Source: a bacterium (GTDB lineage: Bacteria; UBP15; UBA6099). Taken from it: a DNA stretch of 63,682 nucleotides. Both the position numbers and the translations under genes were made by a program. A model generated the notes under the pieces. The model had not been told where the DNA came from. It ran no database searches and worked only from the letters and a program-made list of their open reading frames with translations. Positions 29,259 through 47,956 of the stretch are shown here, one piece after another. Location: positions 1-63,682 of the forward strand of contig JBAYJY010000005.1 in NCBI GenBank assembly GCA_041664945.1, read 5' to 3'. Each line of letters begins with the position of its first letter. Positions within the stretch are counted from its first letter, which is position 1.

Positions 29259-29972
29259 TCAAATTTCACGCTCCGCAAGCCATCTATTCGCCACCTCAAT
29301 AGCCTGTTGCGCATCGGCGGCATAACCATCCGCGCCGACTTGCAGCCAGAGATCGGGCGCCACGTTGAAAAGCCTGCCTCCGACCAATATCTTTACCGAT
29401 TTGCATGCCTCGTCCGCCCGCACCCTTCTCACAAGGCTCATGGCCGCTTCGAGATTGAATGTGATCGTGGCGGAAACCGCAAGAAGGTCCGCGCCGCGCT
29501 CCACCACTGTCTCGACTATGCTTTCCTGCGGCGAGCTCGCACCAAGATAATATGTGTCCCATCCTTCCATCTCAAAAAAATCCGCGACCATTCGTATTCC
29601 GATTTCATGCAATTCTCCGGCGACGCTTGTGGCGACAAGCTTTTTCCCGTTTTTCTTTGAGGAAAATATCATCGGGTACATCTGCGACATCACCATCTGC
29701 GTCACATATGTGCAGAAGTGTTCCTGCGCCACGGAGATTATGTTGGCCTGCCATAGCCGGCCGACCTCTAACTGGGCCGGTTGAAACACACGCAGGTAAA
29801 TATCGCGGACAGCGGCTCCTTTTTCAACTGCATCCAAAATCAACCGCCCCGCCTCATGCCTGTCGCCGGCAATCAATGTTTTCATATAATCCTGAGCCAG
29901 ATGCCCTAATGGCGTTGTATCTTTCCAAAACTGATGCTTGAGCATTTCCTCGTTTTTGAGAATCTCTTTCAT
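29259..29972 (-). CDS. stand-alone cobalamin-binding protein, CarH/AerR-type photoreceptor module (helical bundle plus Rossmann B12-binding domain)
   Basis: 237 aa. W74-x9-E84-H85 (GRLWQANIISVAQEHF) lies in the N-terminal helical domain. E120-x-H122-x2-G125 (GELHEIG) provides a lower-axial His, followed by SATI and VGG motifs of the B12-binding Rossmann fold. No DNA-binding or kinase domain. Confidence 0.75.
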   Translation of the reverse strand: MKEILKNEEMLKHQFWKDTTPLGHLAQDYMKTLIAGDRHEAGRLILDAVEKGAAVRDIYLRVFQPAQLEVGRLWQANIISVAQEHFCTYVTQMVMSQMYPMIFSSKKNGKKLVATSVAGELHEIGIRMVADFFEMEGWDTYYLGASSPQESIVETVVERGADLLAVSATITFNLEAAMSLVRRVRADEACKSVKILVGGRLFNVAPDLWLQVGADGYAADAQQAIEVANRWLAEREI

Positions 29973-30011: not shown

Positions 30012-33000
30012 CTAATCATCCAACACGCTGCGGACTAATTGCGACAGTTCGGCGACCTTGAACGGCTTTTGTATGAAACCCTCAACGCCTTCGTCCAGCA
30101 GCGCGCTGATCCGCCCGTCCGAACTGTAGCCGGACGCGATTATCACTTTCACATCCGGGTTTATTTTGACAAGCGCCCTGTAAACATCCTGCCCGTCCAT
30201 TTCCGGCATGATCATATCCAATACGACAAGATCAATTTTATCGCGGTTCTTATTATATGTTGCCAGCGCTTCTTTTCCACTCTTAGCCCTGAAAGTCCTG
30301 TATCCGCATTTCAAAAGCATCTTTTCGCCGACTTTTGCCACAGCATCTTCATCGTCGACAATAAGAATGCCCTCGTCGCCGCGCAGGACAGCGCCGGCGT
30401 CTTCCTTTTGTTTATCCTGCTCTTTCAGATTCAGCAACGGCAGGTAAATATAGAAAATGGTCCCTTTGCCGGGCTCGCTGTCAACCTCGATATGCCCGTT
30501 GTGGCTTTTTATTATCCCGTGCGTGATAGACAGCCCGAGTCCGGTTCCCTTGCCCACGCTTTTTGTCGTGAAGAACGGCTCGAATATGCGTGTTTTAACT
30601 TCCTCCGGCATGCCGGCGCCTGTATCTGAAATCTTCACGAGACAATAGTCCCCGGATCGAACATCCGGATAGTCTTTGACATATTCGTCATCAAGCTCGA
30701 CTTTCATGCATTCGATCGCCAACTCGCCGCCATCCGGCATGCTGTCGCTGGCGTTATTGCAGATGTTCAGAAACGCCTGAAACACCTGATTCGCGTCGAC
30801 AGTCACAACAGGCGGTTCGGTCACGGCGGTTTTGATTTTGATTTTCTTATTGACGCTTCGTGAAAGAACGATTGAAAGGTCGCTGATAATAGAACTGATG
30901 TCCACGCTCTTGATATCGAGCTTTTCCTTGCGCGCAAACGTGAGAAGCTGCATGGTAAGTTCTTTCGCCCGGTTCGACGCCGTCATGATTTCGTTCAACT
31001 CATCGTAGAAATGCTCTCCGGGCGACAATTCCATTTTCGCCATCTGCGCGTTCCCCATAATCACTGCAAGCATATTATTGAAGTCGTGAGCGATCCCGCC
31101 CGCCAGCGTGCCGATCGCCTCCATCTTCTGCGCCTGAAGAAGCTGCTGCTGGAGAGCGTCTTTTTCCTCTTCCGCGCGCTTGCGTTTGGAAATATCACGG
31201 CACACGGCGAACACGAGTTTCTTTCCAGCGCATACCGCCCCGTTGGAGCTGACTTCAACGTCGATAAAGCTGCCGTTTTTGCAGCGGTGGCGCGTTTCAA
31301 AGTGATCGCCTTTCTCGTCAACAAGCCGTATCATTTCCAGCAGTTGCTCTTGCGTCCACTGGCTGTCCCAATCCCATATATGGAGTTGAAGCGCTTCCTC
31401 GCCGGAATACCCCAGCATTTCGGCAAATCTTTTGTTCGCCTCTAATACTCTCCCTTCCTCGTCCATGACAACAATGCCGTCGCTCGACTGCTCGACCAAT
31501 ATGCGCCTCCGGATTGCCTCGTCCGCCAATGCCTCTTCCGTCCGCTTGCGTTCGGTGATATCGTTAAATGTGACAATGAGCTTGTCGGCAAGAAAAGAGG
31601 CGTAGAGTTCGCAAATGCAGACAGAACCATCTTTGCAGCTTATCCGGTATTCACCGGTGTTGACTGGCTGCCGGGATTGGCGGGCTATTTCCAAAAATGG
31701 CTTCCATCTGTTAATCACCTCAAGGCGATAATCGGGATCAGGATAGGCAATCTGATACCATTCAGCCACCGTAGGCGCTGTGTGTCCGAAAAGGGAAAGA
31801 GCGCTGCCGCTCCAGAAATGAATTATTTCATCATCCGCGTCGACAACCGCAACCGGAAAAGGAGCGACATCAAGAACGGCTCGAAAATTCTGTTCGCTTT
31901 TACGAAGCGCCTCTTCCGCCTGTTTGCGGTCGGTTATGTCCGTATGCGTGCCGCACATTCTTAACGGTTTCCCTTGTTCGTCTCGCTTCACAACTTTTGC
32001 CTGATCCAGTATCCATTTGTACCGCCCGTCTTTGGCGAGCATTCGATATTCGATCCTGTGCTGCGGCGTCCGGCCTTCCAAATGATCCTGTATGGACTTC
32101 CATGCGGCTTCCCGGTCATCCGGGTGCTGGAGATCGGACCACTGCTTGATCGTGAACTCTATTTCTTCGAGCGTATATCCCAGCATCCCGGCCCAAAGCT
32201 CATTGCGGCAAACCTCCCCCGTCTCTATGTTCCAGTCCCAGTAACCAAGCTGGCTGCCTTCAAGCACGAGCGACATTCGCTCTCCGCTCTCCATCAACGC
32301 ATCCTCCGCCTGCTTGCGTTCTGACAAATCCACATGCGTTGCCTGATAGTAAAGCAGTTTCCCCTCGGCATCGATTATTTTCCGCGCGGCGACAAGAACC
32401 CAGAACCGCGCTCCGTCGCGGCGAAACACTTCAACCTCCCTTGGCTCCATGAATCCCTTCTCGTCGAGAATTCGCAGAATTTCTTTCCGATCCTCTGGAT
32501 TTGAGTAGAACGATTTTCCTATGTCAGACACATCAGCCATAATTTCTTCCGGGCTTTCGTAGCCATACATCCGCGCATACGCCGTATTAGCGTGAACCAA
32601 TCTCCCGTCGGGAGTCGCCGCTGAAATGCCCATCATTGTGTTATCATACAGACTTCGGTATCTTCCCTCGGATTCCCTCAGCGCATCCTCCGCCAGCTTG
32701 CGCTCGGTGATGTCCTCATGCATCAAAACAAATCTTTTGGGACTCTCATTATTGTCGTACAAGGGGAATACAGTTCCCCGAAGCCAAACCGGAGCGTCCG
32801 GAAATTCGGGGGACACATCACGGGTGTTAAAATAAACTGCGGGGAAATCAACAGCTTCGCCTTTTTTAACGCGTTCAAATATCTCTTCAAATCCCTGCTT
32901 CTTTAATTGAAGATCATTAAAGATCGACCAATCGGGAGGCGGCACGGAACCAAATAGCCTTGTGTGCGCCGAATTAACTTTGAGCGTAAATCCATTCTCG

Positions 33001-34142
33001 TCCACAATTTGAATTGACATCGGATTTTTATCAATTATTTCCTGCAATATGTTTTCCGCCAGCTTGCGGTCGGTTATGTCGACTATGTTTGTAATGAAGT
33101 ATTGCGGCGTTCCTGTCTCGTCATTGAAAATCGTCGTGCTTACGTCGGCCCATACGATGCCGCCTTCCTTGCGGACATATCGCTTCTCCCATCGATAGAA
33201 ATCCGCTTCTTTCTCATGGAGGCGCCGGATATATTCGTATGACTCCTCAAGATCATCGGGGTGGGTGATCAGGTCGAAACTCAACTGCTGCAGTTCCTCG
33301 ACTGTATAGCCAAGCATGCGGGCAAATACATTGTTGACCCTTATCAGCTTTCCATCCATCCCCGTCATGGACTTGCCGACAGTCGACCTCTCAAACATAG
33401 TCCGGAATCTGTTTTCGCTCGCCCGCAGTTCATCAGCCTTAATATTTCGTTCATTAAACTTCCTGAAAACATTCCACGAACCAAGCCCTATATAAACCAG
33501 GTAGCCGACAACGCTCATGGTTATCAAATAAAAATAGGCGGGCTCTTTATAAAGCAAAATGGGAGGCGACGTAATGTCGCTGTGCGTCATTAACCCCGTG
33601 TATTCCGATATTGCGACGAACAGAAACAAGCAGTTTATAAACGCTATATGTTTTGCCAGCGTTTTTTTAGAAGTCACGGAACTCAATGGCACAATGTGCC
33701 CGAAAAAATACAGGCAAAGGGGCGAAAGCAACCCGCCGGAAAATTTCATCGCGAGAATCGACAGCGCCTCGCCCGTATATATGAAAACATCGAAAATAAT
33801 CCTGCCGCGCTCCGCGCTTTTCGCTCTTGAAACGCAGATCATTGCGATAAAGCGGTTGAGAACGATTAGAAAAGTGAAAATCATTGCCGGCGCAAGCCAC
33901 TTCGCATCGAAAACTATCCTGTACCGCGCCGAAGGAAAATATATTTCCCTGCCGAGCAAAAAAATCGTTCTGCCGTCTCCGATATACTGCATGCCGGCAT
34001 TGAAAGCCGCGAAAATGATGCCGAGAACGCCGAGGACAATTAATACGCCTTTCCATCCCCGCGAGAGAAACCAGCGCGCATCCGACTGTAAATCAGCCAT
34101 GTTTCCATCGTTCGGGAGGTTATCTTTTTTGAATATACCCAT
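30012..34142 (-). CDS. membrane-bound multi-PAS hybrid sensor histidine kinase (HisKA, HATPase, C-terminal REC)
   Basis: Start at ATG 34142 (AAGAGGA 8 nt upstream); the ORF track extends to 34193. About 230-aa polytopic N-terminus, six PAS/PAC modules separated by DITERK-type linkers, H-box [19 protein letters not shown] lid, and REC acceptor region LVVLDMIMPEMDG. Confidence 0.85.
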   Translation of the reverse strand: MGIFKKDNLPNDGNMADLQSDARWFLSRGWKGVLIVLGVLGIIFAAFNAGMQYIGDGRTIFLLGREIYFPSARYRIVFDAKWLAPAMIFTFLIVLNRFIAMICVSRAKSAERGRIIFDVFIYTGEALSILAMKFSGGLLSPLCLYFFGHIVPLSSVTSKKTLAKHIAFINCLFLFVAISEYTGLMTHSDITSPPILLYKEPAYFYLITMSVVGYLVYIGLGSWNVFRKFNERNIKADELRASENRFRTMFERSTVGKSMTGMDGKLIRVNNVFARMLGYTVEELQQLSFDLITHPDDLEESYEYIRRLHEKEADFYRWEKRYVRKEGGIVWADVSTTIFNDETGTPQYFITNIVDITDRKLAENILQEIIDKNPMSIQIVDENGFTLKVNSAHTRLFGSVPPPDWSIFNDLQLKKQGFEEIFERVKKGEAVDFPAVYFNTRDVSPEFPDAPVWLRGTVFPLYDNNESPKRFVLMHEDITERKLAEDALRESEGRYRSLYDNTMMGISAATPDGRLVHANTAYARMYGYESPEEIMADVSDIGKSFYSNPEDRKEILRILDEKGFMEPREVEVFRRDGARFWVLVAARKIIDAEGKLLYYQATHVDLSERKQAEDALMESGERMSLVLEGSQLGYWDWNIETGEVCRNELWAGMLGYTLEEIEFTIKQWSDLQHPDDREAAWKSIQDHLEGRTPQHRIEYRMLAKDGRYKWILDQAKVVKRDEQGKPLRMCGTHTDITDRKQAEEALRKSEQNFRAVLDVAPFPVAVVDADDEIIHFWSGSALSLFGHTAPTVAEWYQIAYPDPDYRLEVINRWKPFLEIARQSRQPVNTGEYRISCKDGSVCICELYASFLADKLIVTFNDITERKRTEEALADEAIRRRILVEQSSDGIVVMDEEGRVLEANKRFAEMLGYSGEEALQLHIWDWDSQWTQEQLLEMIRLVDEKGDHFETRHRCKNGSFIDVEVSSNGAVCAGKKLVFAVCRDISKRKRAEEEKDALQQQLLQAQKMEAIGTLAGGIAHDFNNMLAVIMGNAQMAKMELSPGEHFYDELNEIMTASNRAKELTMQLLTFARKEKLDIKSVDISSIISDLSIVLSRSVNKKIKIKTAVTEPPVVTVDANQVFQAFLNICNNASDSMPDGGELAIECMKVELDDEYVKDYPDVRSGDYCLVKISDTGAGMPEEVKTRIFEPFFTTKSVGKGTGLGLSITHGIIKSHNGHIEVDSEPGKGTIFYIYLPLLNLKEQDKQKEDAGAVLRGDEGILIVDDEDAVAKVGEKMLLKCGYRTFRAKSGKEALATYNKNRDKIDLVVLDMIMPEMDGQDVYRALVKINPDVKVIIASGYSSDGRISALLDEGVEGFIQKPFKVAELSQLVRSVLDD

Positions 34143-34246
34143 GGAATATATCCTCTTGATTATATTTCGATATCCCCATCGAATTATCAGCATTTATTCG
34201 ATCACAACGGCTTACAGATATGACGGTTCAGCATTTAAAACGCCTC

Positions 34247-37200
34247 TCAACCGTCCAGCGCCTCGCGCACCTTGGCTGTCAGGTCCTGCAGCGAAAACGG
34301 CTTGGAGATGAAGTGAATATTCTGGTCCAGAATTCCATTGTGGACAATCGCGTTTTCAGTGTAGCCGGACATGTAAAGCGCTTTGATGTGCGGACATATT
34401 TTCGCGAGCCGCTCCGCGAGTTCGCTCCCGCTCATTTCCGGCATGACCATGTCGGTTATAATGAGATGTATCGAATCGCCTTCGCGCTCACATATAAGCA
34501 GCGCCTCGCCTCCGTTTGCGGCCGTGTGGACCTTATAACCCGACGCTTCGAGAGCTCGTTTTGTAAGGCTGAGCACTCCCGGTTCGTCCTCGACAACCAG
34601 TATCGTTTCCGTTCCCGTTGTCGTCGTGAATTTCCGCTTCTCCCGAACCGCAGTCTCGGCGATTGAAAGTTCCCGGCGCAGATAAATCTTGAATGTCGTC
34701 CCCTCGCCGGGCTCGCTGTAGACCCAGATATGCCCCCCGCTCTGATTGACTATGCCATAAACAGTCGAAAGGCCAAGGCCGGTCCCTTTCCCTTTTTCCT
34801 TTGTCGTGAAAAACGGCTCGAAAATATTTTCCTTTGTCGCTTTGTCCATCCCGCATCCGGTGTCCGACACCGAAAGCGCGACATATTGCCCTGGCGCAAC
34901 TTCCGGATGCTCTTCCGCATATGCCCCGTCCAATTCGACATTTGCCGTTTCTATAGTGAGCTTGCCTCCCATGGGCATTGCGTCGCGCGCGTTGACGGCG
35001 AGATTCAAAACCACCTGCTCGATCTGTCCGGGGTCAGCCTTAACCTTGCCGAGGTCGCCGGCGAGGCAGGCGATAAAATCAATGTCCTCGCCTATGAGGC
35101 GCCGGAGCATCTGTTCTATCCCGGCAATCGTATCGTTGATATCCAGTATTTCAGGAACGAGCGCCTGCCTGCGGCTGAATGCGAGAAGCTGCCGCGTCAG
35201 GTCCGCCGACCGCTCACCGGCTTTGAGAATTTCTTTCATATCCTCCAGCAGCGGATCGCCCGGCCTAAGCGCGTCGATTGCCATTCCCGCATAGCCGTTG
35301 ATGACGGAGAGCATGTTGTTGAAATCGTGCGCTATGCCGCCCGCGAGCCTTCCAACCGCCTCCATTTTCTGAGACTGCCGGAGTTGCTCCTCCGACTTCC
35401 GCAGATCTTCTTCAGCCTTCTTGCGGTCCGTGATATCCTCCGAGATTCCCAATAGAAACTTCGAGACGCCGTCGGCGCCTCTTATGCAAACCTTCCTTGT
35501 GTGCAACAGCCGCTGACCTTTTCCGGCTGTCAGAATTGGCTCTTCCGGGATGTCCAGCATCTCGGCTTCTCCATCGAGAACTTCCCGGTCTTTGGCCATG
35601 AAATGGGCCGCCTGCTCGGGAGGGAAAAGATCTAAGTTGTTCTTGCCGAGCAAGTCTTTGCGCCCATACCCCAAAAGCTCCTCGCCCGCGCGATTGAATA
35701 TGACAAACCTCAGTTCCTCCGCCTCTTTCAGGAAGATCATGTGCGGGACATGCTCCACAACCGCTTCGAAAAGGGCTTTCGATTCCAGCAGTTCCTCCTC
35801 CGCCCGCTTGTGGGCGAGCGCAATCCCGACGCTTGCCCCAAACCCCTCAAAAAACAGGATCATCTCCCGCGTGAAACGGTTGGCGCGGCGGTCGTTCAGT
35901 TGCAGCAACCCGACAATCTCGTCGCCGGAGCGCAACGGTATTAGCGCGACCGACTCGTAGCCCTCTCCGTTGCAGCGGTTGCGCGTGCGCGCCTGCCGGT
36001 CCGCTTCAGTCGTCTTGACTAACAGCTCCGTCGTGCAGTTGGACCAGAAACTGCCGCCTTCCGTGAAAAACGGAAGCGATGTGTCTGTGCGTCCGCAGAG
36101 AATGTTGCCGCACATGCAATCCAGCTCCGGATTCCCCTGCCCGTCCCGAATGATCTTTCCATCCTTGCCATACGCGCACAGGCTCCGCTCGGCAACAACA
36201 AAATCCTCCGGAAATCCCAAAGTCCCATAGTACGGAAAATCATCGCCCTCCCGCATCCGGATTCCAATGGCCTCGAAATCCGTATTTTTCTTAATCACCC
36301 GCAATATTCCTTCAAGCATGCTCTTGGTTTCCTGCGGACGGTTCATATGTTCGAGCGCTTCGCGCGCAAGCCGCTCCCGGCTTTCAAATTGCTTGCGCTC
36401 GGTGATGTTCACGACGCTGGTGATTATGTACAGCGTCGCTCCGTTTTCGTCCCGTATGAGCGTGGAGCTCTCATCGGCCCAGACGATGCCGCCGTCCTTG
36501 TGAATGTATCGCTTCTCTATCCTGTATGACTCGCGCTCATTCGAAAGGAGACTGCGGAAATATTCCCGGCTTTCCGGCGCATCGTCCGGATGCGTAAATT
36601 GCAGGAAGTCGCGCTCGCGGAGATCCTCGACGGCATAACCGAGCATATCGGCGAAAGCCTTGTTTGTCACCAACATAATCCCATCAGGCGACGCCAGCGA
36701 TTTGCCCACCGTGGATCGTATGAATATCTCACGGAACCGGTCCTCGCTCTCCGACAGCGCCTTTGTTCTTTCAGCAACCCTGTCTTCCAACTGCTCGTTC
36801 AGCAATTTCAACTCATTCTGCGCCTGGATCAATTCGTTGTTTCTGTTGACCGCCGCTTCATAGGTGGAAATGAGAAGCGTGAGCATCTGCTGCTGGTCGG
36901 CCGTGATGAAACGCCGTTTCTCGGCGAACTGGATTTCCACCCCCACCCGAACCCGCTCGCTGCTTACTAATTTCCTGTTGGCGAGCATCTGTTCGATGCT
37001 GGGCAGAAGATAACTCTCGCTGTATGGCTTCGTTATAAAATTGTCCGCCCCGCACGCCAGCCCCTCGAGCACATCTGTTGAATCAGACAGGGAAGTAAGC
37101 AGGATCACCGGTATGTATTCCGTGCTTACATTCGCTTTGATCTGTCTGCAAAGCTCGTATCCATCCATTTCCGGCATGATGATATCCGTTATAACAAGTT

Positions 37201-37369
37201 GCGGCTTGTAGTTTTTCAGCAACTCAAGCGCCTGTCTGCCGTTTCCGGCCGCCGTCACTCTGAATTCATGTTTTTCCAAGAGGTATTTAAGTTCCTCGGC
37301 CTGCGTGGGACTATCCTCGACGATAAGTATTTCGACAGGTTCCTGTTGGGATTTCAAATGTTCATTCAT
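34247..37369 (-). CDS. hybrid sensor histidine kinase REC-PAS-GAF-PAS-HisKA-HATPase-REC
   Basis: Start at ATG 37369 (MNEHLKS), overlapping the cheB stop by 8 nt. N-terminal REC ([13 protein letters not shown]), PAS, GAF-like and PAS modules, H-box [16 protein letters not shown], and C-terminal REC ([13 protein letters not shown]). Confidence 0.85.
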
Positions 37370-38426
37370 TTTTTCCTTCTTTCGGCGCCTGCGCAAGCGT
37401 CATTAAGATATCCGCAATGCCTTCCGGCGGAAGAATATATTTTGCCGCGCCGAGCCTGATCGCCTCGCCCGGCATTCCATGCACGATTGAGCTTTCATTA
37501 TCCTGCGCGATCGTGACCGCGCCTCTTTCCTTCATCATTTTCAATTCCTCCGCTCCGTCTTTTCCCATTCCGGACAGCAACACACCCGCCGCGTTCGCCC
37601 CGAACTCCTCTTTGACGGTTTTAAAAAGATATGCGACGGACGGCCGCAAGCCGTTCTCAGGCCCGTGATCGCTTAGAAATATACGCTTGTCGCGCCCCAC
37701 TCCCATGTGAATTCCATCCGGGGCGATATATGCGCGTCCCGGCTCCGGACGCTCTCCATGCTTCGCCACGCTCATTGGAAAAAGCGTCGCTCCGCTAAGC
37801 CACTCCACAAATCCATTCACAAATCCAGAAGCTATATGCTGAACGATCAACAGGGAAACAGCCAGATTTCCCGGCAACCTTGAAAGTATTGTTTTCAGCG
37901 CCAACGGCCCGCCGGTTGACGCCCCGATCGCGATAATTCGAACTCCCGTACTTGTCTCCGGCTCATTTTTGATGGAAAGAGGAACACCAGCGGGAGCCTT
38001 CAACTCGAGCCGGACGCGTCTAACAACTTTGACCTCCGACATGAGTTTTACCGTCTGAATCAGCTCCCTTGCGGCTTTCCCGTGTTCGGGATGTCCTATG
38101 CCCGGCGGACGCAGAATCACAGCCAGCGCGCCGGCTTCGAGCAATCGGAACGTTCCGGCTATCTCCTGCGCTCCGGAGCTCGCGCTTACGATGACAATCG
38201 GCGTCGGCTGCGTTTCCATTATGCGGCGGGTCGCCTCAATTCCATCCATCCTTGGCATGTGGATGTCCATTGTAATTATGTCGGGACGCCCGCGCTTTAT
38301 CATTTCAATCGCTTCCAGCCCGTCGCCGGCGACTCCCATCACCTCTATCGCGGGGTCGGATGAAAGTATGTAAACGAGCAACTCACGCGCCACCGGCGAA
38401 TCTTCGACTATCATTACCTTGATCAT
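37362..38426 (-). CDS. cheB: protein-glutamate methylesterase CheB (REC plus methylesterase)
   Basis: 354 aa. REC (IITMDIHMPRMDG) and a CheB catalytic domain (IGASTGGP, HM, GMGKDGA). Confidence 0.9.
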   Translation of the reverse strand: MIKVMIVEDSPVARELLVYILSSDPAIEVMGVAGDGLEAIEMIKRGRPDIITMDIHMPRMDGIEATRRIMETQPTPIVIVSASSGAQEIAGTFRLLEAGALAVILRPPGIGHPEHGKAARELIQTVKLMSEVKVVRRVRLELKAPAGVPLSIKNEPETSTGVRIIAIGASTGGPLALKTILSRLPGNLAVSLLIVQHIASGFVNGFVEWLSGATLFPMSVAKHGERPEPGRAYIAPDGIHMGVGRDKRIFLSDHGPENGLRPSVAYLFKTVKEEFGANAAGVLLSGMGKDGAEELKMMKERGAVTIAQDNESSIVHGMPGEAIRLGAAKYILPPEGIADILMTLAQAPKEGKNE

Positions 38427-38448
38427 TCAGTTCCCCATTCGGCGTTTT

Positions 38449-40818
38449 TCAAATCAGCTTCTTTATCACTTCAAGCAGATTGCTCTGGTCGAAACTGCTC
38501 TTGACTATGTAGGCATTCGCGCCCACTTCGATTCCTCGCTCGCGGTCCTCTCGCGATTCGAGCGCCGTCACCAGAACCACCGGCAACTCTGCGTATTTCC
38601 TGTCTTCCCGAATCCGCGCCGTGAGTTCAAACCCGCTCATCCTCGGCATGTCCACATCCGAAACGACCAGATCAAACTCTCCGCTGCGAACTTGCGTTAA
38701 AGCGTCCATTCCGTCCACCGCCGTCGCCACACGGTAGCCCGCCGTTTCCAGTATGTTCTTTATCAGCATCCTCGACGTGATCGAGTCCTCCGCCACAAGA
38801 AGGCTTCCCGTTCCGGCCGCCGGCTTCGCCTCCGCCGCCGCGGTTTTCGCCCTCCCGCCGGACCGCACGGCGGATTTCATCAGATCGGTCGCGTTTATAA
38901 CCGGAACGACTTTGCCCGTGCCCAGAACCGTGGCCCCCGCTATGTTGCGCACCCGGCTCAACTGCGCCCCCAGCCCTTTCATCAGTATTTCCAGCTCGCC
39001 GAGAACCTCGTCCACCTGAAAGGCGATCCGTTTGTCGCCGGACGCCAGAACCACAACGGTAATATGGTCTGGCGCGGATGCCCCAGACGCCGGAATCGCT
39101 TCGTTGCGCATCGGCAATTCAAGAGCTTCCGCAAGCCTGACCATCGAGATGATTTGCCCGTTCAACTTGATGGTCTCCCGGTTCTCCACCGTCTTTACCT
39201 CATCGGGATTCACTCTCACAACGCATTCCGTGTTGATGGTGGGCAGGATAAAAACGCTTCCCTCCACACGCGCCAGAATGCCCTGAAAAGTCGTGAGCGT
39301 CAGCGGCAGAAGAAGCCTGAAGTTTGTTCCGGCGCCGGCTTTCGAGTCCGCTGATACAAGCCCGCCGAGTTTATCCGCTTTCTCGCGCACGATCGCCAGA
39401 CCCAGTCCGCGGCCTGATATGTCCGTGATAATCGGGCTTGTGGTCACCCCCGACTGGAAAATGAGCGACAGCGCCTCTTGCGCGTCCAGTTTGCCGGCCG
39501 CCTCAGGCGAAAGAACGCCTGCCTTAATCGCGGCCGAAAGGACCCGCTCAACATCAACGCCGGCCCCGTCGTCTGATACTATAATTTCTATACTGCGGCT
39601 GTCTTTTACGCTGAAGCCGAGCGTTATCGTCCCGCGCGCCGGCTTGTTCTCACGCGCCCGTTCTTCGGGCTTTTTCATGCCGTGGTCCACGCAGTTCCGA
39701 ATGATGTGCAGCAGCGGGTCTTTAAGCTCGTCGAGTATCCTCTTGTCAATCTCGACCTCCGCCCCGCGAATGATAAGCTCCACTTCCTTGCCCTGATCCC
39801 GGGCGAGGTCGCGCACGAATCCGGGAAACCCCTCGACGAGCGACGACACCGGAAGCATCAGTATTCTTTTCATCGCATCAAGATGCTCGTCCACCATTCG
39901 CCTCAGAGCGCGCTGGTCCTGCTCAACCGCCTGAGTTAATTCCGCTATCCGATGCTGGAACCCGTTCAATCGCGCTTCGTTCAACTCTATCAACTTGTCA
40001 AGCAGCGGGGCGCTCTCTTCGCGCCTTCTACTCTTCAGTCTTGTCCATTCCGTTTTCCACAAGACAAGCGCCTGCTCGATCTCACGCAGTTCGGCGGCCC
40101 GCTGGCCGGCCGACATTTTTGCCGAAATCATCTCTTCCGCCTGCAGCAGAAGCGGAGCAAGCTTGTCCGTTGATATTCTCACGGTTTCCGCAATGCCCGG
40201 CGAATTCCGGGGAGATGACTCGATTTCGCCTTTTGATTCCGGCGCGCGTTCTGCGGGTTCGCTCTTCGGCTCTTGCGGCGAATTTCGGGGAAATGACTGG
40301 AATTCGCTTTTTAATTCCGGATCGTGTCCCCTGAATTCACCAATCCCGGACGGCTGCGTTTCTCTGGCCGGCTCCGAAGCTTTCGTTTTGGCCGGCGCCG
40401 CGGCTCCTCTGGAAACATTGGTCAGCAGCCGGATCAGCTCTTTTGTTTGCGCTTGTTCAACAGTCGCCGCCTGTTCAGGGTCCGCCGCCAATGCAAGCCG
40501 CTCGATGCCGTTTACCGTCTTGTGAAACAGGTCGCACATCCCGGGCGACAAAACAATTCCCTTCCTTTTCAACGCGGAAAACACGCTTTCCAAAGGCTGG
40601 CAAACCGACTCGACATCCTTCAGATTCACCGAACGGGCCGCGCCCTTGAGGCTGTGCGCCTCGCGAAACACGATCTCGATTATTTCCGCGCTTCTTTCGG
40701 CTTCAGCAGTCTTTTCAAGCTCGAAAAGGCTGGAACGGAGCGTCCTTATATGCTCTTCCGCCTCGATCCGAAATGTGGCGCGGAGCCGTTTGAGGAATTC
40801 TTTATCTTTTGCGTCCAT
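38449..40818 (-). CDS. cheA: chemosensory histidine kinase CheA fused to a C-terminal receiver (CheA-REC)
   Basis: 789 aa. Hpt with AHSLKGAARS, a long low-complexity linker, HATPase (DDGAGVD, SGRGLGL), a CheW-like P5 domain and REC (LVVSDVDMPRMSG). Confidence 0.9.
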   Translation of the reverse strand: MDAKDKEFLKRLRATFRIEAEEHIRTLRSSLFELEKTAEAERSAEIIEIVFREAHSLKGAARSVNLKDVESVCQPLESVFSALKRKGIVLSPGMCDLFHKTVNGIERLALAADPEQAATVEQAQTKELIRLLTNVSRGAAAPAKTKASEPARETQPSGIGEFRGHDPELKSEFQSFPRNSPQEPKSEPAERAPESKGEIESSPRNSPGIAETVRISTDKLAPLLLQAEEMISAKMSAGQRAAELREIEQALVLWKTEWTRLKSRRREESAPLLDKLIELNEARLNGFQHRIAELTQAVEQDQRALRRMVDEHLDAMKRILMLPVSSLVEGFPGFVRDLARDQGKEVELIIRGAEVEIDKRILDELKDPLLHIIRNCVDHGMKKPEERARENKPARGTITLGFSVKDSRSIEIIVSDDGAGVDVERVLSAAIKAGVLSPEAAGKLDAQEALSLIFQSGVTTSPIITDISGRGLGLAIVREKADKLGGLVSADSKAGAGTNFRLLLPLTLTTFQGILARVEGSVFILPTINTECVVRVNPDEVKTVENRETIKLNGQIISMVRLAEALELPMRNEAIPASGASAPDHITVVVLASGDKRIAFQVDEVLGELEILMKGLGAQLSRVRNIAGATVLGTGKVVPVINATDLMKSAVRSGGRAKTAAAEAKPAAGTGSLLVAEDSITSRMLIKNILETAGYRVATAVDGMDALTQVRSGEFDLVVSDVDMPRMSGFELTARIREDRKYAELPVVLVTALESREDRERGIEVGANAYIVKSSFDQSNLLEVIKKLI
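40199..40320. repeat. in-frame 78-bp tandem duplication inside the CheA linker
   Basis: 44-nt cores at 40199-40242 and 40277-40320 are 38/44 identical and 78 nt apart. They encode the repeated PE(L/S)K(S/G)E(F/I)(Q/E)S(F/S)PRNSP. Confidence 0.7.
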
Positions 40819-40872
40819 CTTTTCGCCGCCTTATGTCGCATTTTTCATTAATGCGATCAGAAGAAATTCTGG

Positions 40873-42504
40873 TCATACCTTGAACTGTTCCGCCAGCCCC
40901 TTGAGTTTCTGGCCAAGCTCGTGAAGATTTCTCGCCGCCGTCTCCGATTGCTTCATGCTCGTAGCGGTTTCAGCGCCCGCCTGATTGATGTTTTCCATGG
41001 CGACGCCTATCTGATCCATTCCCACAACCTGCTGCTGGCTCGATGCCACGATCTGCGTCGCCGCCTGCGCCGCTTCATCGCTGGTCTCCGCCAGCGACCG
41101 GATCGCCTCCCCGGCCTGCGCCGCCTGCTTCACCCCCGACTCAACAGCTTTGCTACCCTGCTCAGTCGCCATCACCGCCGCGCTCGTCGCCTTCTGTATA
41201 TCGCTCAGAATCCCGCGCACCTGAGTTGTTGCCTGCTTCGACTGTTCCGCCAGACTCCTGATCTCCTGCGCCACGACCGCAAACCCTTTGCCCTGCTCTC
41301 CCGCTCTCGCGGCTTCTATGGCTGCGTTGACAGCAAGCAGGTTGGACTGGTCCGCTATATCCGTCACGGAAGCGATTATTCCCCCTATGGACTGGCTCTG
41401 CTCGCTCAGACTCACTATTGTGTTGGCTATAGATTCCATCTGCTCGCGGATGTTGCTCATTCCGGCAGTGGTTTCCTCGACGGCTCTCCGGCCCGCTTGC
41501 GTAGTCTGGGCTACGCGCTGCGAACTGTCCGAAACATTTTTCGCCTTCTGGGAAGAAAGCTGCGCCGCCTGCCTCACCTCTTCAACAGTAGTCGTGGTTT
41601 CGCTGATGGCGGTCGCTGATTCGGCCGCCCCGGAGGCTACCTGCGTAGTCGCCGCGAGGATTTCGCTCGCGGTTGCGCTGAGTTGATTGACTGCTTCGGA
41701 GATATCCTTGGTCGAGCGTCGGAGATTCTCCACCATCTGCCGGAAAGTCCGAATCAGGACTCCAACCTCGTCCGTCCGCTCTTCGGCGACGACATCCACT
41801 GTCAGGTCCCCGGCGGCTATACGCGAAGCATACGTTGAGATCACTCCGAGCGGCCTCGCGATTGTATGGTTAAGAAACAGTATCATCAACCCGCCTATGA
41901 GAAACGCGGATACTCCAATGAGCATAAAGATGCGGATTGCCGTCTGCGACGCTTGCATATCAGCGGCAAGTTGTTTATGTTCGGCGTCGGCTGCCTTGTC
42001 ACCCAGTTCATTTGCGATAGAACGCATCTGATCGTAACGTTTTGATTGGATGCCGAGAATCAATGGTTTAGCTTCTTCTATCTTTCCCTGATCGATAAGT
42101 CCGATTACCACCTCCCGGGTCTGGCGATATGCGGCTAAAATTTCCGAATATTCTTTCATTTTGCCCTGACATACCGGATCCTTGTCATTTTTCAGAATAT
42201 CGCTTAAAAAATCATCTATTGCCCGGTTGCGCTCAAGGGTGTTTTGATCGAGCGCTTTACGAACTGTATCGTTGGGATTCAACATCTCAAGCAGCATGTT
42301 TGCCCGCAGTCCGTTCTCGTCCACCCTCAACTTCATGAAACCAATGGATTCTTTGTGATTAATTTCGGCCAAATTCTTTTCGGACTGCGTTATTGCCGTC
42401 AGACTCCGGTAAGCGGTGATGGTAATTACCGCCAGCAGTAACCACATTGCTCCGAAACCGACAAGTAGTTTGGCGAGCGTGGAAAGATTGGTGAATCGTT
42501 TCAT
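40873..42504 (-). CDS. mcp: methyl-accepting chemotaxis protein (TM, four-helix-bundle sensor, TM, HAMP, signalling domain)
   Basis: 543 aa. Two TM helices flank a roughly 170-aa helical periplasmic region, followed by HAMP. Conserved signalling hairpin ([40 protein letters not shown]). GGGAGGG RBS. Confidence 0.9.
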
Positions 42505-42531
42505 GGTAAATCCCTCCCAAATTTTGTGTGT

Positions 42532-43167
42532 TCAATCTATCTCTTGATGAACGATGATTTTTTCATCGTTCAAAATCTTTTCAGCATCAAGAACTATCAG
42601 CCGCTCTTCGCAGACGCCCTTCAAATATTCCGCGCCGATCCCCGTGACCGTCTGCGGCGCCGCCTGTATCCCGTCGAGCGGGATCGATCGCGCGCCGAGT
42701 ATGGCGTCCGCCAGAATCCCGAACTCCATCCCGGCGTTTCGTATGATGATCACTTTGTTTAGTTCGCCTATGCCTTTATCAGGCAGATTGAAAAATTTCT
42801 TCAGGTCCACCACCGATAGAATCCGGCCGCGCACGTTGATTATTCCGAGAACGAACGGCGGCGTTCCGGGCAGCGGCGTGTAATCCGTCAGCGGATACAC
42901 TTCGAGCACAAACGCGGATTCGATGCCGTAGTTTTCAAAAGCGAGCCGGAATTCAATGATTTCTATGAACCCGCGGCCCTCGGCGGCTTTTTCCGGCTCC
43001 CGGGCGAGGTCACGCGCCCGCGACCTCAATATGGATAGCTTTTCCTCCGCCGATGGCTCGGCGCCGCGCCCCAACTCTTCCCGCGCGGTTTCCATTCGGC
43101 TGTGTATTTCGCTCCAGTCAACAGCATTCCCCTGTTGCCGGGATGGTTTGTCCATGCCTGTTTTCAT
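42532..43167 (-). CDS. cheW: CheW-like coupling protein (long form)
   Basis: 211 aa. The CheW domain (FRLAFENYGIESAFVLEV...ILGIINVRGRILSVVDL) follows a roughly 60-aa N-terminal extension. 4-nt overlap with cheR. Confidence 0.85.
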   Translation of the reverse strand: MKTGMDKPSRQQGNAVDWSEIHSRMETAREELGRGAEPSAEEKLSILRSRARDLAREPEKAAEGRGFIEIIEFRLAFENYGIESAFVLEVYPLTDYTPLPGTPPFVLGIINVRGRILSVVDLKKFFNLPDKGIGELNKVIIIRNAGMEFGILADAILGARSIPLDGIQAAPQTVTGIGAEYLKGVCEERLIVLDAEKILNDEKIIVHQEID

Positions 43168-44657
43168 GCCGTCGCTCCAACCAACATAGTGGCGTTAATG
43201 ATTTCCCTGAACCTGTCAGCCGTCAGTCCCCCGGATTCGGGGAGCGCGTCTTCATTCCCGTATTTATTAAGAAGATCGAGCGCATTCCTGAAATATCTGC
43301 CCGCGGACCTCGCATTACCCCCGCGCATCAGGATATTGCCGATGGCAAAATGCGCCAACACAAAATCCGGATCGAGATACAGCGCGCGCTTGAACGATAC
43401 CATCGCCTTATCCTCCAGATTCTGTTCCTGCAAAATCGTCGCGTGGAGATAATACAATCCGGGATCGAGTTTTTCGGCGGCGATCGCCTCTTCGCACGCC
43501 GCCAGCGCTTCCGCGAGCTTTCCACAGTTCGCGAGCTCGCGAACCGTTTGCGCGTCCGCATGCGGCGGCTTGTCGCCTTTCGGCATTTCAGCCGTTTCTT
43601 CGGAGCGCGCTGGCGGCGCTGAACCGGCTGTCTCTTCCAGCATTGTTCGCTGAAGCGCCGGCATTTCAATGTCCTGCGCCTTTTCGATAATCGGGAACTG
43701 GAATAGCGGCTCTGCTTCAACCGGACCTGCGGCTTTCGGAAGCTGCTGAAAATCATCATTTTGATAGTATGGAATTTCAAAACTGAATATTTCCGAAGGG
43801 CGATACTCGCGCTCGCATTTTCTGTATACGATCGCCCCCGGAAAATTGACAGAAGTCAAATCGGGAAAGAGATGCTGGGAAAGCTCGCTGGAACTTACTA
43901 TCAGCCATCCTTCATCCACGAGAGCGCCGTAAAAGCTCCGCCCTATCTGCCTCGCTCGCTCCGGCTTGAAATACATCAGCACGTTCCGGCAGAATATGAT
44001 GTCCATCGCGTTCGTATTGTTCATCGGCGACGGATAAATATCGCCGCCCAGATTCAGATAGCCGAATTTAACCATCTTCCGTATCTCAGGCAGCAGTTCG
44101 TATTCCTTTTCTTTCCTGCGCCGGAAATACCCGTCCTTGAGCCACGGCGGCGCGTTGCGGAAAGACCATTCGCCGTACACGCCAGCCAGCGCCCTGCGCA
44201 CCATGCGGGGATTAATGTCAGTCGCGAGTATTGTGATATGCCAGTCTTTTATGTCCGGGATCGCTCTTCGCAGCGCTATCGCTATGGAGTAAGGCTCCTC
44301 GCCGGTCGAGCAGCCCGCGCTCCAGATTCTCAGCAGCCTGCCGGTCTTCTGCCGCGCCCGGATCAGTTCGGGCAGTATGCTGCCCAGAAGCGCTTCAAAC
44401 ACCTGCGGCTCGCGCCAGAAATATGTTTCGTGCACCGTGAGATGGCTCGCCAGCAACTCTATCTGTTCCGTCGTCAGCCGCGACGCGACCAGCCATTGAA
44501 CGAATGATTCAATGTCCGAAAAGCCAAACTCTTTAGCCGCCGCGCCCGCCCGGCGGCTCAGATCGCCCCACTTCTCCTCAGGAAAATTCAACGCCATTTT
44601 TTCCGCAACCAATTCGCTCAATTGAGACAACAGATTGTCGGACAGACAGACATTCAT
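43164..44657 (-). CDS. cheR: chemotaxis methyltransferase CheR with C-terminal TPR domain
   Basis: 497 aa. CheR SAM-methyltransferase core (RIWSAGCSTGEEPYSIA, IFCRNVLMYF) and C-terminal TPR repeats. ATGA overlaps on both sides. Confidence 0.9.
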   Translation of the reverse strand: MNVCLSDNLLSQLSELVAEKMALNFPEEKWGDLSRRAGAAAKEFGFSDIESFVQWLVASRLTTEQIELLASHLTVHETYFWREPQVFEALLGSILPELIRARQKTGRLLRIWSAGCSTGEEPYSIAIALRRAIPDIKDWHITILATDINPRMVRRALAGVYGEWSFRNAPPWLKDGYFRRRKEKEYELLPEIRKMVKFGYLNLGGDIYPSPMNNTNAMDIIFCRNVLMYFKPERARQIGRSFYGALVDEGWLIVSSSELSQHLFPDLTSVNFPGAIVYRKCEREYRPSEIFSFEIPYYQNDDFQQLPKAAGPVEAEPLFQFPIIEKAQDIEMPALQRTMLEETAGSAPPARSEETAEMPKGDKPPHADAQTVRELANCGKLAEALAACEEAIAAEKLDPGLYYLHATILQEQNLEDKAMVSFKRALYLDPDFVLAHFAIGNILMRGGNARSAGRYFRNALDLLNKYGNEDALPESGGLTADRFREIINATMLVGATA

Positions 44658-45136
44658 TTCGCGCCCCCGGATAACGCCTCATCGAGCGCTCTCTCCTCGT
44701 CGAGGGAAAGAAACTTATCGAGGTCGTAGATCAGGACGATTCCGTCTTTCGTCTTCGCCACGCCTTGAATGTGTTCGGCGAAAGGAAGCGATTGTTCGAC
44801 GCTCTCAATCCCGCCGTCCTCAAGCTCATGCGCTCCGGAAACGGAATCAACCGCCAGCGCCACCGTTCGCCGGGAAGCGCGCGCTATGATGAACTGGTCG
44901 TCGAGATGCATCTCGCGCGCAGGCAGGCGGAAACGCTTCCGGACGTCGATCACAGGTATAACCCTCCCTTGAAAATTGATTATCCCCATGACGATTTCAG
45001 GCGCCTTTGGCAACAACGTTATTTCCACCACACGCACAACCCGCTCAACCGCGGACAAATAAAGCGCGCAACGCGGCTCGTCAAGCGTGAAAATTACGAT
45101 CTGATTCCGATTTGTCTGTTCAAGCATGCTCATCAT
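44654..45136 (-). CDS. cheW: CheW coupling protein
   Basis: 160 aa. CheW domain (IVIFTLDEPRCALYLSAVERV...IMGIINFQGRVIPVIDV). Confidence 0.85.
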   Translation of the reverse strand: MMSMLEQTNRNQIVIFTLDEPRCALYLSAVERVVRVVEITLLPKAPEIVMGIINFQGRVIPVIDVRKRFRLPAREMHLDDQFIIARASRRTVALAVDSVSGAHELEDGGIESVEQSLPFAEHIQGVAKTKDGIVLIYDLDKFLSLDEERALDEALSGGAK

Positions 45137-45176
45137 GAACTCCTGTCCGGCGGCGCCGGTTCGATGAGAATAACGG

Positions 45177-45743
45177 CTATCCCTTTTGAATCGCGCCGTT
45201 CAACGCCATGCGCGCCGAACCAATTAGTTGCTTTACGGAAAATGGCTTGGAAAGCAGCATTATCGGCCCGTCCCCGGTCGCCTTCATCGCTTTTGTCATA
45301 AGCTCGCTGTCCGGATAGCCTGTCACTATTATCACGGGCATCATTTCGTGCGTTTTTCGCAACTCAAGCAAAAATTCAGGGCCGTTCATTCCCGGCATTT
45401 TCAGGTCCAAAAGGACTAAGTCTATTTCTTGCGACAAAACGTATTTCAGCCCTTCCGCTCCTTTTGAGGCCGCATATACCTTGTAGCCTTCGGGTTCGAG
45501 TATTCTGCGTATCAAATTGCGCATGGATTCGTCGTCATCCACAATCAGCGCGCGCGCGGAACGGCTTTGCGATTGTTGTGAATCCGCCCAAAGCAGCAGC
45601 GCATCTTTGCGAAATCGCCAGTCCTTTCCCATTTTGAACGCCGGGATATCGCCGCGCCGAGCAAGCCGCCGGACTGTTTCAACATGCGACCCTAAGAAGT
45701 CGGCCGCTTCCTGTGCATTAAATACATCGCCTTTTTTAGCCAT
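45177..45743 (-). CDS. response regulator with N-terminal excisionase/MerR-type HTH and C-terminal REC
   Basis: 188 aa. The HTH (FNAQEAADFLGSHVETVRRLARRGDIPAFKMGKDWRF) precedes the REC (ALIVDDDESM...LVLLDLKMPGMNG). This domain order is inverted relative to classical response regulators. Confidence 0.8.
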   Translation of the reverse strand: MAKKGDVFNAQEAADFLGSHVETVRRLARRGDIPAFKMGKDWRFRKDALLLWADSQQSQSRSARALIVDDDESMRNLIRRILEPEGYKVYAASKGAEGLKYVLSQEIDLVLLDLKMPGMNGPEFLLELRKTHEMMPVIIVTGYPDSELMTKAMKATGDGPIMLLSKPFSVKQLIGSARMALNGAIQKG

Positions 45744-45832
45744 AAATACGATTTAAAACCGCCTTCCATGACTTTCCTTGCGCCACACAGATGCTTAAAG
45801 CTATTAAATTGAGGTAAATATTTTTATTATGT

Positions 45833-45862
45833 TAGTTAATTATAGTTGAGGTTAGTTGAGTT
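45833..45862. promoter_or_regulatory. three phased 10-bp direct repeats overlapping the promoter core
   Basis: TAGTTAATTA / TAGTTGAGGT / TAGTTGAGTT are read consecutively at 45833, 45843 and 45853. They cover the -10, the spacer and the edge of the -35. Confidence 0.5.
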
Positions 45863-45867
45863 ATCAA
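45839..45867 (-). promoter_or_regulatory. sigma70-like promoter candidate of the chemosensory operon
   Basis: On the minus strand: TTGATA (45867-45862), exactly 17 nt, TATAAT (45844-45839). It lies about 95 nt upstream of ATG 45743 in the only AT-rich stretch of the region. Confidence 0.5.
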
Positions 45868-47930: not shown

Positions 47931-47956
47931 AAAGATTTCGGGTATAATACTTGCGA

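Follow-up and report, generated by a model that had tools for sequence, protein, structure and literature searches.

What does a chemosensory array control when its gene cluster opens with a DNA-binding regulator and closes with a histidine kinase? Chemosensory clusters belonging to the alternative-cellular-function (ACF) class are widespread, and the output under their control is mostly unknown. The question is raised here by a 63,682-nt stretch of contig JBAYJY010000005.1 (assembly GCA_041664945.1), called the window below, in whose coordinates all positions are given. Its cluster begins with the gene of a response regulator that joins an HTH_17 DNA-binding domain to a receiver (REC) domain, referred to as HTH_17-REC, and ends with the gene of a receiver-headed hybrid kinase, HK1. 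The reading favoured here, with a probability of about 0.6, is that this cluster encodes an ACF-class, Che3-like chemosensory phosphorelay with transcription as its endpoint.

The original prediction read the minus-strand order as HTH-REC, CheW, CheR-TPR, CheW, methyl-accepting chemotaxis protein (MCP), CheA-REC, CheB and hybrid kinase, and the Pfam domains of the encoded proteins agree with it. Eight tightly packed, co-directional genes run from 45743 to 34247 on this strand. The HTH_17-REC response regulator (188 aa, 45177-45743; HTH_17 E 2e-13, Response_reg E 8e-27) is followed by a first CheW (160 aa, 44654-45136; E 3e-28), orthologues of which, with 40-72% identity, occupy the same position in related loci. 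Next come a CheR with a C-terminal TPR region (497 aa, 43164-44657; CheR domain at residues 77-259, E 7e-48, and TPR_8/TPR_11/TPR_2 matches at 401-463) and a second CheW with an N-terminal extension (211 aa, 42532-43167; CheW domain at residues 70-202, E 1e-28). The transmembrane chemoreceptor (543 aa, 40873-42504; 4HB_MCP_1, HAMP, MCPsignal) and the CheA-REC hybrid kinase (789 aa, 38449-40818; Hpt, HATPase_c, CheW, Response_reg) precede the CheB methylesterase, which carries an N-terminal receiver (354 aa, 37362-38426; CheB_methylest E 1e-55). The cytoplasmic hybrid kinase HK1 (1040 aa, 34247-37369) completes the series with the layout REC-PAS-(GAF)-PAS-HisKA-HATPase-REC, in which the GAF match is partial and weak (E 9e-6).

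The close packing is borne out at the gene junctions. ATGA overlaps join cheW to cheR (44654-44657) and cheR to the second cheW (43164-43167), an 8-nt overlap joins cheB to HK1 (37362-37369), as had been noted earlier, and the remaining intergenic gaps between the regulator and HK1 measure 22-54 nt. The HK1 start is most likely the ATG at 37369, which gives the 1040-aa protein, rather than the TTG at 37396. The annotation of an identical public groundwater-metagenome contig has matching gene calls and domains. Among the window proteins, CheB alone passes an NCBIfam cut-off, that of a CheB subfamily (346 vs 342 bits); CheA has generic matches below cut-off, and HK1 shows a resemblance to CckA-type kinases only, also below cut-off.

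At the residue level, alignment finds the acceptor aspartate and the catalytic residues intact in all six receivers of the 17-kb block to which the cluster belongs, the reference for receiver numbering being E. coli CheY. CheA combines a P1/Hpt domain with phospho-histidine H55 (HSLKG), a HATPase domain, a CheW-like P5 domain and a C-terminal receiver with D721; no P2 domain was detected in it by Pfam. In HK1, the N-terminal receiver carries D62 and the HisKA domain carries phospho-histidine H681 in an AHDFNN H-box, and a transmembrane (TM) scan found no TM segment in this protein. The MCP is laid out as TM1, a periplasmic four-helix-bundle sensor, TM2, HAMP and a signalling domain, with hydrophobic segments at residues 7-25 and 185-203.

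The first step towards an answer is the class of the system, and all checked features fit an ACF-class, Che3-like assignment. The layout predicted earlier is supported by CheR-TPR, the two CheW proteins, a CheA-REC without detected P2, a 40-heptad (40H) receptor, a multidomain receiver output and the lack of motility genes. CheR-TPR is a published marker of ACF clusters (PMC3447774), and a multidomain response regulator in the cluster is an ACF feature as well (PMC3447774, PMC10782961); two such multidomain receiver proteins are encoded here, HK1 and the HTH_17-REC first gene product. The architecture of CheA, with a single Hpt, a single CheW domain and no detected P2, is unlike that of F5 or typical type IV pilus (Tfp) kinases; class-specific CheA architectures are described in PMC10782961. 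The cytoplasmic part of the MCP extends over 140 + 140 residues, from the end of HAMP at 263 to the tip glutamate at 403 and from there to the C-terminus at 543, which is the 40H length by residue counting rather than by a class profile; the WspA receptor is also 40H (PMC2577667). As regards neighbouring genes, the nearby presence of flagellar genes had been named beforehand as what would speak against this class, and the annotation of the whole 63.7-kb window holds no flagellar or pilus gene. The only motility-related item is a PilZ-REC protein, whose PilZ part is a c-di-GMP receptor domain. Geobacter CheA/Y clusters were grouped with Frz, Wsp and Rhodospirillum centenum Che3 by Tran et al. 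(PMC2577667).

The output position can be judged from related loci. Scanning the CheA protein against one genome per species gave a comparison set of 80 loci; contigs and loci taken for comparison carry L-numbers (e.g., L032). The CheA relatives in this set are full length and 44-62% identical, and the metagenome-assembled genomes (MAGs) that hold them are labelled Fibrobacterota, Spirochaetota, Bacteroidota, Omnitrophica, Desulfobacterota, Nitrospirota, Ignavibacteriota, Planctomycetota and Chloroflexota, with some archaeal; the closest relatives (59-62% identity) come from MAGs labelled Omnitrophica, Fibrobacterota and Spirochaetota. Because the core order CheW-CheR-CheW-MCP-CheA/REC-CheB-[REC-X] is preserved in most of these 80 loci from different species, the comparison places the gene arrangement far beyond chance. 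Three archaeal-binned contigs, L008 and L009 (Methanosarcinales/ANME-2) and L079 (Methanomicrobiales), also carry a CheW-CheR-CheW-MCP-CheA/REC-CheB-REC-kinase cluster, with CheA identities of 45-53%; they reflect either cross-domain transfer or a binning error.

In 66 of the loci, the gene after cheB opens with a receiver 41-67% identical to residues 1-140 of HK1, directly followed by a conserved linker of about 75 residues, whatever domain comes next. Residues 1-215 of HK1 correspond to this unit, a che-output receiver (D62) with a conserved linker or coiled coil. The conservation of receiver and linker after cheB in 66 clusters supports the predicted transfer from CheA to the N-terminal receiver of HK1. 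When these 66 proteins are aligned with HK1 itself (alignment A1), 52-53 of the 67 carry HisKA and HATPase domains, about a third have PAS or GAF domains, and GGDEF and SpoIIE outputs occur in 2/67 each. By domain content, a REC-headed kinase in the output position is thus the norm for the cluster class and not a peculiarity. What the original prediction had presented as the distinctive output is therefore ordinary here, and it has been reported bioinformatically before: Muñoz-Martínez et al. found that approximately 40% of the regulators in CheR-TPR clusters contain a HisKA+HATPase module, sometimes with PAS/GAF (PMC3447774).

A regulator in first position is likewise common in this cluster type, usually as a bare REC. 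Bare CheY-like receivers occupy this place in L001, L020, L021, L024, L056, L059, L061 and L066, and a REC-HD-GYP protein does so in L004 and L005. By their composition, these first-position regulators match the Che3 layout of a regulator plus che genes plus a second kinase. In a Chloroflexi MAG (L050:5023-5223), a stand-alone 66-aa HTH_17 protein (E 5e-20) is encoded with a 4-nt overlap with the start of the first cheW, and by sequence and position it is a second, independent link of HTH_17 to the cluster type.

In the regulator of the window, a winged helix of the excisionase/MerR type at the N-terminus precedes a receiver with DD69-70, D113, T141 and K166. At least 692 relatives were found at E <= 1e-10; all those listed carry PF12728+PF00072, and none of them bears a functional name. 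Family members are regulators of approximately 185-200 aa with an intact receiver, a description that the window protein fits. Across the family alignment (A2), the winged helix is conserved, D113 and K166 are invariant, and the receiver active site is fully conserved. The AlphaFold2 (AF2) model of the window protein has a pLDDT of 88, and neither a sequence nor a fold search found a solved structure in which a single chain contains both HTH_17 and REC.

HTH_17-REC genes are mostly found without any che genes, and elsewhere they are usually directly followed by a gene for a PAS-HisKA-HATPase-REC kinase (L085, L087, L088, L092, L104, L108, L124, L141, L173). These neighbour kinases can be compared with HK1 and also with HK2, a membrane-anchored multi-PAS hybrid kinase of 1376 aa with at least four TM segments (30012-34142, minus strand; Pfam, TM scan) that is encoded after HK1. 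They are 43-46% identical to residues ~520-1039 of HK1, compared with 32-37% for HK2. For the four closest relatives of the regulator (L085, L087, L090, L032), the core of the neighbouring kinase, of the type QKMEA..AHDFNN HisKA-HATPase-REC, is 59-62% identical to the HK1 core (656-905) and 43-46% identical to HK2; the cores of HK1 and HK2 share 49% identity. By these identities, HK1 is a chimera of a che-output receiver head and a body orthologous to the usual partner kinase of HTH_17-REC, which therefore provides the strongest comparative argument for a route from CheA through HK1 to HTH-REC. The orthology of the HK1 core to kinases adjoining HTH_17-REC genes thereby supports the earlier proposal that the output would run through HTH-REC.

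In the window, the che genes lie between the regulator and its partner kinase, as in L032 and L102. The full arrangement, with the regulator first, the che genes next and the REC-kinase last, thus recurs in these two well-diverged contigs: the L032 regulator is 58% identical to that of the window, and L102 shares 72% identity in CheW, 75% in the MCP and 73% in the kinase. L075 matches as far as its sequence reaches: its contig stops within the kinase gene, and neither cheR nor the second cheW could be resolved in it. L172 matches from the regulator through cheB, where the fetched locus ends.

HK1-like sequences also occur outside this arrangement. Full-length HK1 homologues without che genes (50-51% identity) are present in P0247 / L171:7178-12940 and on the contig of P0248, directly after a PAS kinase and a small receiver. 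Because of this placement, it appears that an ordinary kinase can take the place of CheA in driving the same kind of receiver-headed kinase. Within the window itself, the minus-strand region 27464-27851 holds a remnant hybrid kinase gene with an 82-aa stretch 67% identical to the last 82 residues of HK1. This stretch covers the C-terminal half of the second receiver and is preceded by a PAS-start fragment in another frame; the public annotation places two tiny open reading frames (ORFs) there. In sequence, it looks like a deleted paralogue.

A candidate DNA target is found in the 265 AT-rich nucleotides that precede the regulator gene, where a promoter-like site and tandem repeats coincide (45835-45867, minus strand; motif match and repeat enrichment). 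The site consists of a -35 TTGATA (45867-45862), a 17-nt spacer and a -10 TATAAT (45844-45839), and with 11/12 positions it is the best sigma-70-like match between 27 and 46.7 kb. Over it run three direct repeats of about 10 nt (45835-45860), CTCAACTAAC / CTCAACTATAA / TTAAC, the third of which is degenerate. The exact pair CTCAAC-N4-CTCAAC at 45845-45860 fills the promoter spacer and is the only one in the 63.7-kb window. These short repeats were not picked up by Tandem Repeats Finder.

Comparable repeats were sought in the 260 nt upstream of each HTH_17-REC gene. Tandem direct CTCAAC repeats with a period of 5 or 10 nt occur there in the window, L085, L088 (where the unit is CTCAACTAAA, x4), L032, L093, L094, L099, L102, L108, L110, L116, L125, L172 and L173. 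All strict phased CTCAAC pairs in 1.33 Mb (28/28) lie upstream of HTH_17-REC genes, always on the sense strand, compared with a single pair in the 2.68 Mb of control loci. Two or more CTCAACTAA-like units in a chain were found in 25/83 upstream regions vs 25/10,242 control windows, and three or more in 17/83 vs 1/10,242. The arrays start 0-25 nt after a TTGACA-like box, and a CTCA(A/T)C core is kept across distant contigs. On this enrichment, the CTCAAC(TAA) repeats are a candidate operator of HTH_17-REC, and the operon would therefore be autoregulated. Winged helices of the excisionase type, such as that of lambda Xis, attach head-to-tail to direct repeats in tandem, and by analogy a head-to-tail, Xis-like binding to the direct repeats would fit.

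The pathway proposed from these elements would begin with a sensing array composed of the membrane receptor, with its periplasmic four-helix-bundle sensor, the two CheW proteins and CheA-REC, while CheR-TPR and CheB would provide methylation-based adaptation. Phosphorylated CheA would pass its phosphate to the N-terminal receiver of HK1, which together with the linker would form a conserved "output head", and the phosphorylated receiver would then switch the HisKA kinase of HK1. This kinase would also be gated by its own PAS/GAF sensors, would probably be buffered by its C-terminal receiver, and would act as the cognate kinase/phosphatase of HTH_17-REC. The regulator, in turn, would bind head-to-tail to the CTCAAC(TAA) repeats across the -35/-10 elements of its own operon promoter and to further targets, so that the pathway would be autoregulated through that promoter. 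In evolutionary terms, a two-component pair of HTH_17-REC and a PAS hybrid kinase may have been split by a che module, with the kinase acquiring a che-output receiver. Every phosphotransfer step, the binding of the repeats by the regulator and the sign of its effect are inferred by us from sequence. The wider proposal reaches further and, in our estimate, falls somewhat short of even odds: HTH_17-REC would be an undescribed class of DNA-binding response regulators that assemble head-to-tail on ~10-bp CTCAACTAA repeats at their own core promoters, and in one subtype (the window, L032 and L102, with L075 and L172 as far as they reach) it would be the transcriptional endpoint of an ACF array via a chimeric kinase.

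Several observations weigh against this interpretation. Most REC-kinase clusters (L019, L030, L053, L038 and others) have no HTH_17-REC gene nearby, so that the pairing marks a subtype and does not hold generally. Behind the phospho-histidine, the DHp "specificity" positions do not separate HK1 from HK2, and they differ even among bona fide partner kinases; a mirror-tree-style correlation is weak (rho 0.42 vs 0.37), with only the four closest pairs being informative. HK2 belongs to the same subfamily, as its core identity with HK1 indicates, and could serve the same regulator. HK1 moreover has a C-terminal receiver, as in CckA-type kinases that need a separate Hpt protein, and Pfam detects no Hpt domain in the block besides CheA P1; a direct His->Asp transfer from HK1 to HTH-REC is therefore an assumption. 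Finally, the repeat unit drifts between lineages, from (CTCAA)n to (TTCAA)n, (CCTAA)n and ATCTCATCTA (x4), and the repeats could therefore be a structural or leader element and not a protein-binding site.

The genes that continue the block downstream of HK1 bear on the question of a second input. The 104-nt AT-rich spacer between HK1 and HK2 (34143-34246) is the largest gap in the co-directional block, and the motif scan found no promoter-like or terminator-like match in it. HK2 is followed by a stand-alone B12-binding_2 + B12-binding protein (237 aa, 29259-29972; Pfam) after 39 nt, by a photoglobin-family protein (133 aa, 28831-29232) after 26 nt, and by a 230-aa protein ending in a Cys-rich module (PICANCKNIRNDEGFW...FSHGLCPDC; 28097-28789) after 41 nt, all on the minus strand. 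The relatives of the 133-aa protein are fused to B12-binding domains, and one matches Pfam Phycobilisome; its AF2 model (pLDDT 95) is closest to allophycocyanins (TM 0.77). On these relatives and the modelled fold, it is a photoglobin, with a phycobiliprotein-like globin fold, and a partner of the B12-binding protein. It was also considered as the missing Hpt protein, a possibility that the photoglobin relatives and the fold rule out. The association of photoglobin, B12-binding protein and two-component system is published, as is a conserved photoglobin pocket with a distal Cys, an Asp and a proximal Leu (PMC8717448). The HK2/B12-binding/photoglobin half is a recognisable module of its own, and for this groundwater organism the pair is a putative sensor of light or tetrapyrroles.

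The 230-aa protein has no Pfam or NCBIfam match, and its Cys-rich module, PIC..CK.IR.D.G.W...FSHG.CP.C, has no Pfam model. Its C-terminal 90 residues match the ends of dCache-HAMP and Tll0287-HAMP proteins (L092:5017-6564, L099:2137-3276), which lie downstream of HTH_17-REC genes. This recurrence in sequence suggests that the Cys-rich module may be an undescribed output domain linked to the HTH_17-REC family.

It had also been proposed that the whole stretch from 45.7 to 28.1 kb might form one signalling unit, on the ground that no terminator hairpin was seen between HK1 and the next genes. None was seen here either, in a scan that is uninformative on this point and found 25 terminator-like sites vs 23.9 in shuffles, i.e., chance level. 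Synteny gave a divided result: the core che order is kept in most of the 80 loci, but the lower half was not found with a che cluster in any relative. The locus carrying a full-length HK1 homologue, L170, continues with other kinases and an NtrC-type regulator. Because relatives carry different genes after the kinase, the block is, by this comparison, not a conserved unit. The sequence is present in one DNA run, from a groundwater metagenome, and no RNA run contains it; co-transcription of the 17.6-kb stretch in the window organism is possible.

If the block nevertheless acts as one unit, the che array through HK1 and the membrane/PAS sensors and B12-binding/photoglobin pair through HK2 would both control HTH_17-REC, a scheme that adds to the favoured phosphorelay rather than excluding it. 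Twelve co-directional genes with gaps of at most 104 nt and no convincing internal promoter or terminator are consistent with it. Convergence of HK2 on HTH_17-REC as a possible second input is plausible at the sequence level because HK2 shares the AHDFNN-type DHp domain of HK1 and the partner kinases, because HTH_17-REC is the only DNA-binding regulator encoded in the block according to Pfam, and because the Cys-rich module of the last gene recurs in L092 and L099 near HTH_17-REC genes. In L085, which has the closest relative of the regulator, the neighbouring kinase also shares with HK2 a PAS domain of 58% identity, and HTH_17 is among the output domains associated with photoglobin/B12 proteins (PMC8717448). 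What makes this two-kinase scheme doubtful is that HK2, the B12-binding protein and the photoglobin follow the kinase in no related che locus, with L170 having its other kinases and NtrC-type regulator in that place, and that HK1, rather than HK2, is clearly the better match to the kinases paired with the closest regulators. It is exactly between HK1 and HK2 that the block has its widest and most AT-rich gap, and in the literature photoglobin, B12-binding protein and two-component system form a module that stands by itself (PMC8717448).

The lineage drift of the repeats leads to a further alternative, in which the CTCAAC arrays would act through DNA curvature or promoter structure, serve as a leader motif in the transcript, or, as simple repeats prone to slippage, make expression vary. 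Unit length and sequence do vary by lineage: the period is 5 nt or 10 nt, and (CCTAA)n is one of the variants. Long runs of pentamers (L032, L110, L125) look like contingency-type repeats, and several loci have arrays that start at the -10 or beyond it and could be transcribed. We regard this as unlikely, given that the arrays are confined to sense-strand positions upstream of the HTH_17-REC family, that they keep their CTCA(A/T)C core across distant contigs and lie 0-25 nt from a -35-like box, and that Rfam gave no match across the whole window. Still more improbable is a CheY-like scheme in which CheA would phosphorylate HTH_17-REC directly and HK1 would be a phosphate sink or a parallel branch with an unlinked target. 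The regulator does sit where related clusters have bare CheY-like receivers, its receiver is intact, and the C-terminal receiver of HK1 would normally call for an Hpt, of which CheA-P1 is the only one in the block. However, in the one homologous system that has been studied, CheY3 is phosphorylated by the second kinase and not by CheA3 (PMC3868531). The HTH_17-REC family, moreover, occurs mostly without che genes and beside DHp-type hybrid kinases, to which its receiver would therefore be adapted, and the HK1 core is an orthologue of exactly those kinases. The CheA->HK1->HTH_17-REC phosphorelay thus remains the favoured interpretation.

Not all of this is new. The che core and the kinase output are of known kinds, and the cluster type is known and common. 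The HTH_17-REC terminal regulator, the chimeric HK1 and the promoter repeat are new, and no description of the HTH_17-REC link to REC-headed ACF kinases, of the chimeric origin of HK1 or of the promoter repeat was found in the literature searched. Together, the window and its relatives provide candidates for every step between the receptor and DNA. Since a DNA-binding domain can be recognised in the regulator and a specific site is a candidate for its binding, the output becomes testable. The locus also appears to show how pathways are built, with a che module inserted into a two-component pair and a receiver fused onto the kinase, and it flags a large regulator family, with hundreds of members, that lacks a characterised representative. 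If the proposal is true, methylation-adapted, chemotaxis-style processing would control gene expression directly.

The rest of the window is also dense in signalling genes, which encode the PilZ-REC protein, a GAF-GGDEF protein, an NtrC-type regulator and several hybrid kinases. A formate dehydrogenase alpha subunit is encoded on the plus strand at 50301-53372 in two ORFs split by an in-frame TGA (50880-50882; motif HQARI*HSATV), which most likely encodes selenocysteine; a TAT signal lies before it, and genes for an Fe-S subunit and FdhE follow. Large ORFs without a clear Pfam match lie at 17690-22600 (minus strand, 1636 aa), 25367-27424 (plus strand, 685 aa) and 47951-50068 (plus strand, 705 aa), the last of which has only a weak DUF8201 match in the public annotation.

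Among known systems, the Pseudomonas Wsp pathway shares with the window, at the domain level, the CheW-CheR(TPR)-CheW core (with WspC as the CheR-TPR protein, PMC3447774), CheA-REC, CheB, a 40H receptor (PMC2577667) and a receiver-headed output with a coiled-coil linker. The Wsp output protein WspR is a REC-GGDEF protein active in c-di-GMP synthesis, whereas Pfam finds no GGDEF domain in the window cluster, and the nearest GGDEF gene of the window, at 8400-9500, is unrelated to it. In Wsp, the receptor gene comes first. Wsp also has no gene for a DNA-binding regulator, whereas the window cluster has HTH_17-REC.

The Che3/CrdS/CrdA system of Myxococcus xanthus resembles the proposal in another respect: there, a histidine kinase acts together with a che-like system to determine how far a DNA-binding regulator of gene expression is phosphorylated (PMC3147164). 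CrdA is an NtrC-type sigma-54 activator, in contrast to HTH_17-REC, and CrdS has no che-output receiver head, which HK1 does have. M. xanthus CheA3 acts on CrdA itself, with a phosphatase-like effect reported, and not via the kinase (PMC3147164). The photoglobin/B12 pairs described in PMC8717448 resemble the lower half of the block, with a stand-alone B12-binding_2+B12-binding protein beside a stand-alone photoglobin and a hybrid kinase; unlike those published pairs, the one in the window lies directly downstream of a che cluster. HK1, for its part, belongs among the REC-headed histidine kinases of CheR-TPR/ACF clusters (PMC3447774). By domain architecture, it has one N-terminal REC, PAS-GAF-PAS, a HisKA domain of the AHDFNN type and a C-terminal receiver. 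The closest solved structure to its N-terminal receiver is PDB 3GT7 (E 3.5e-35), the receiver of a "sensor protein" that is presumably from Syntrophus.

The Che3 system of R. centenum, a cyst-control cascade of CheA3, CheS3 and CheY3 (PMC3868531, PMC4436063), offers a further parallel. Like the window, it comprises an MCP, two CheW, CheR, CheB, CheA-REC, a receiver-headed second kinase and a separate regulator gene (PMC3868531), a likeness of composition and wiring. The original prediction had stated that CheS3 receives phosphate from CheA3, and the published work agrees: He et al. (2013) showed that CheA3 phosphorylates the first receiver of CheS3, turning CheS3 down, and that CheS3, not CheA3, phosphorylates CheY3 (PMC3868531). 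The path from CheA to the receiver of the second kinase and on to the regulator of that kinase is thus demonstrated in R. centenum, whereas the same wiring is proposed for the window. The two kinases also differ in build, CheS3 being a REC-REC-PAS protein of the HWE class without a C-terminal receiver. The step downstream of CheY3 is unknown according to the authors (PMC3868531). CheY3 has no output domain, whereas the window regulator has an HTH_17 DNA-binding domain, and if the pathway proposed here is true, it would supply the missing output for Che3-like pathways.

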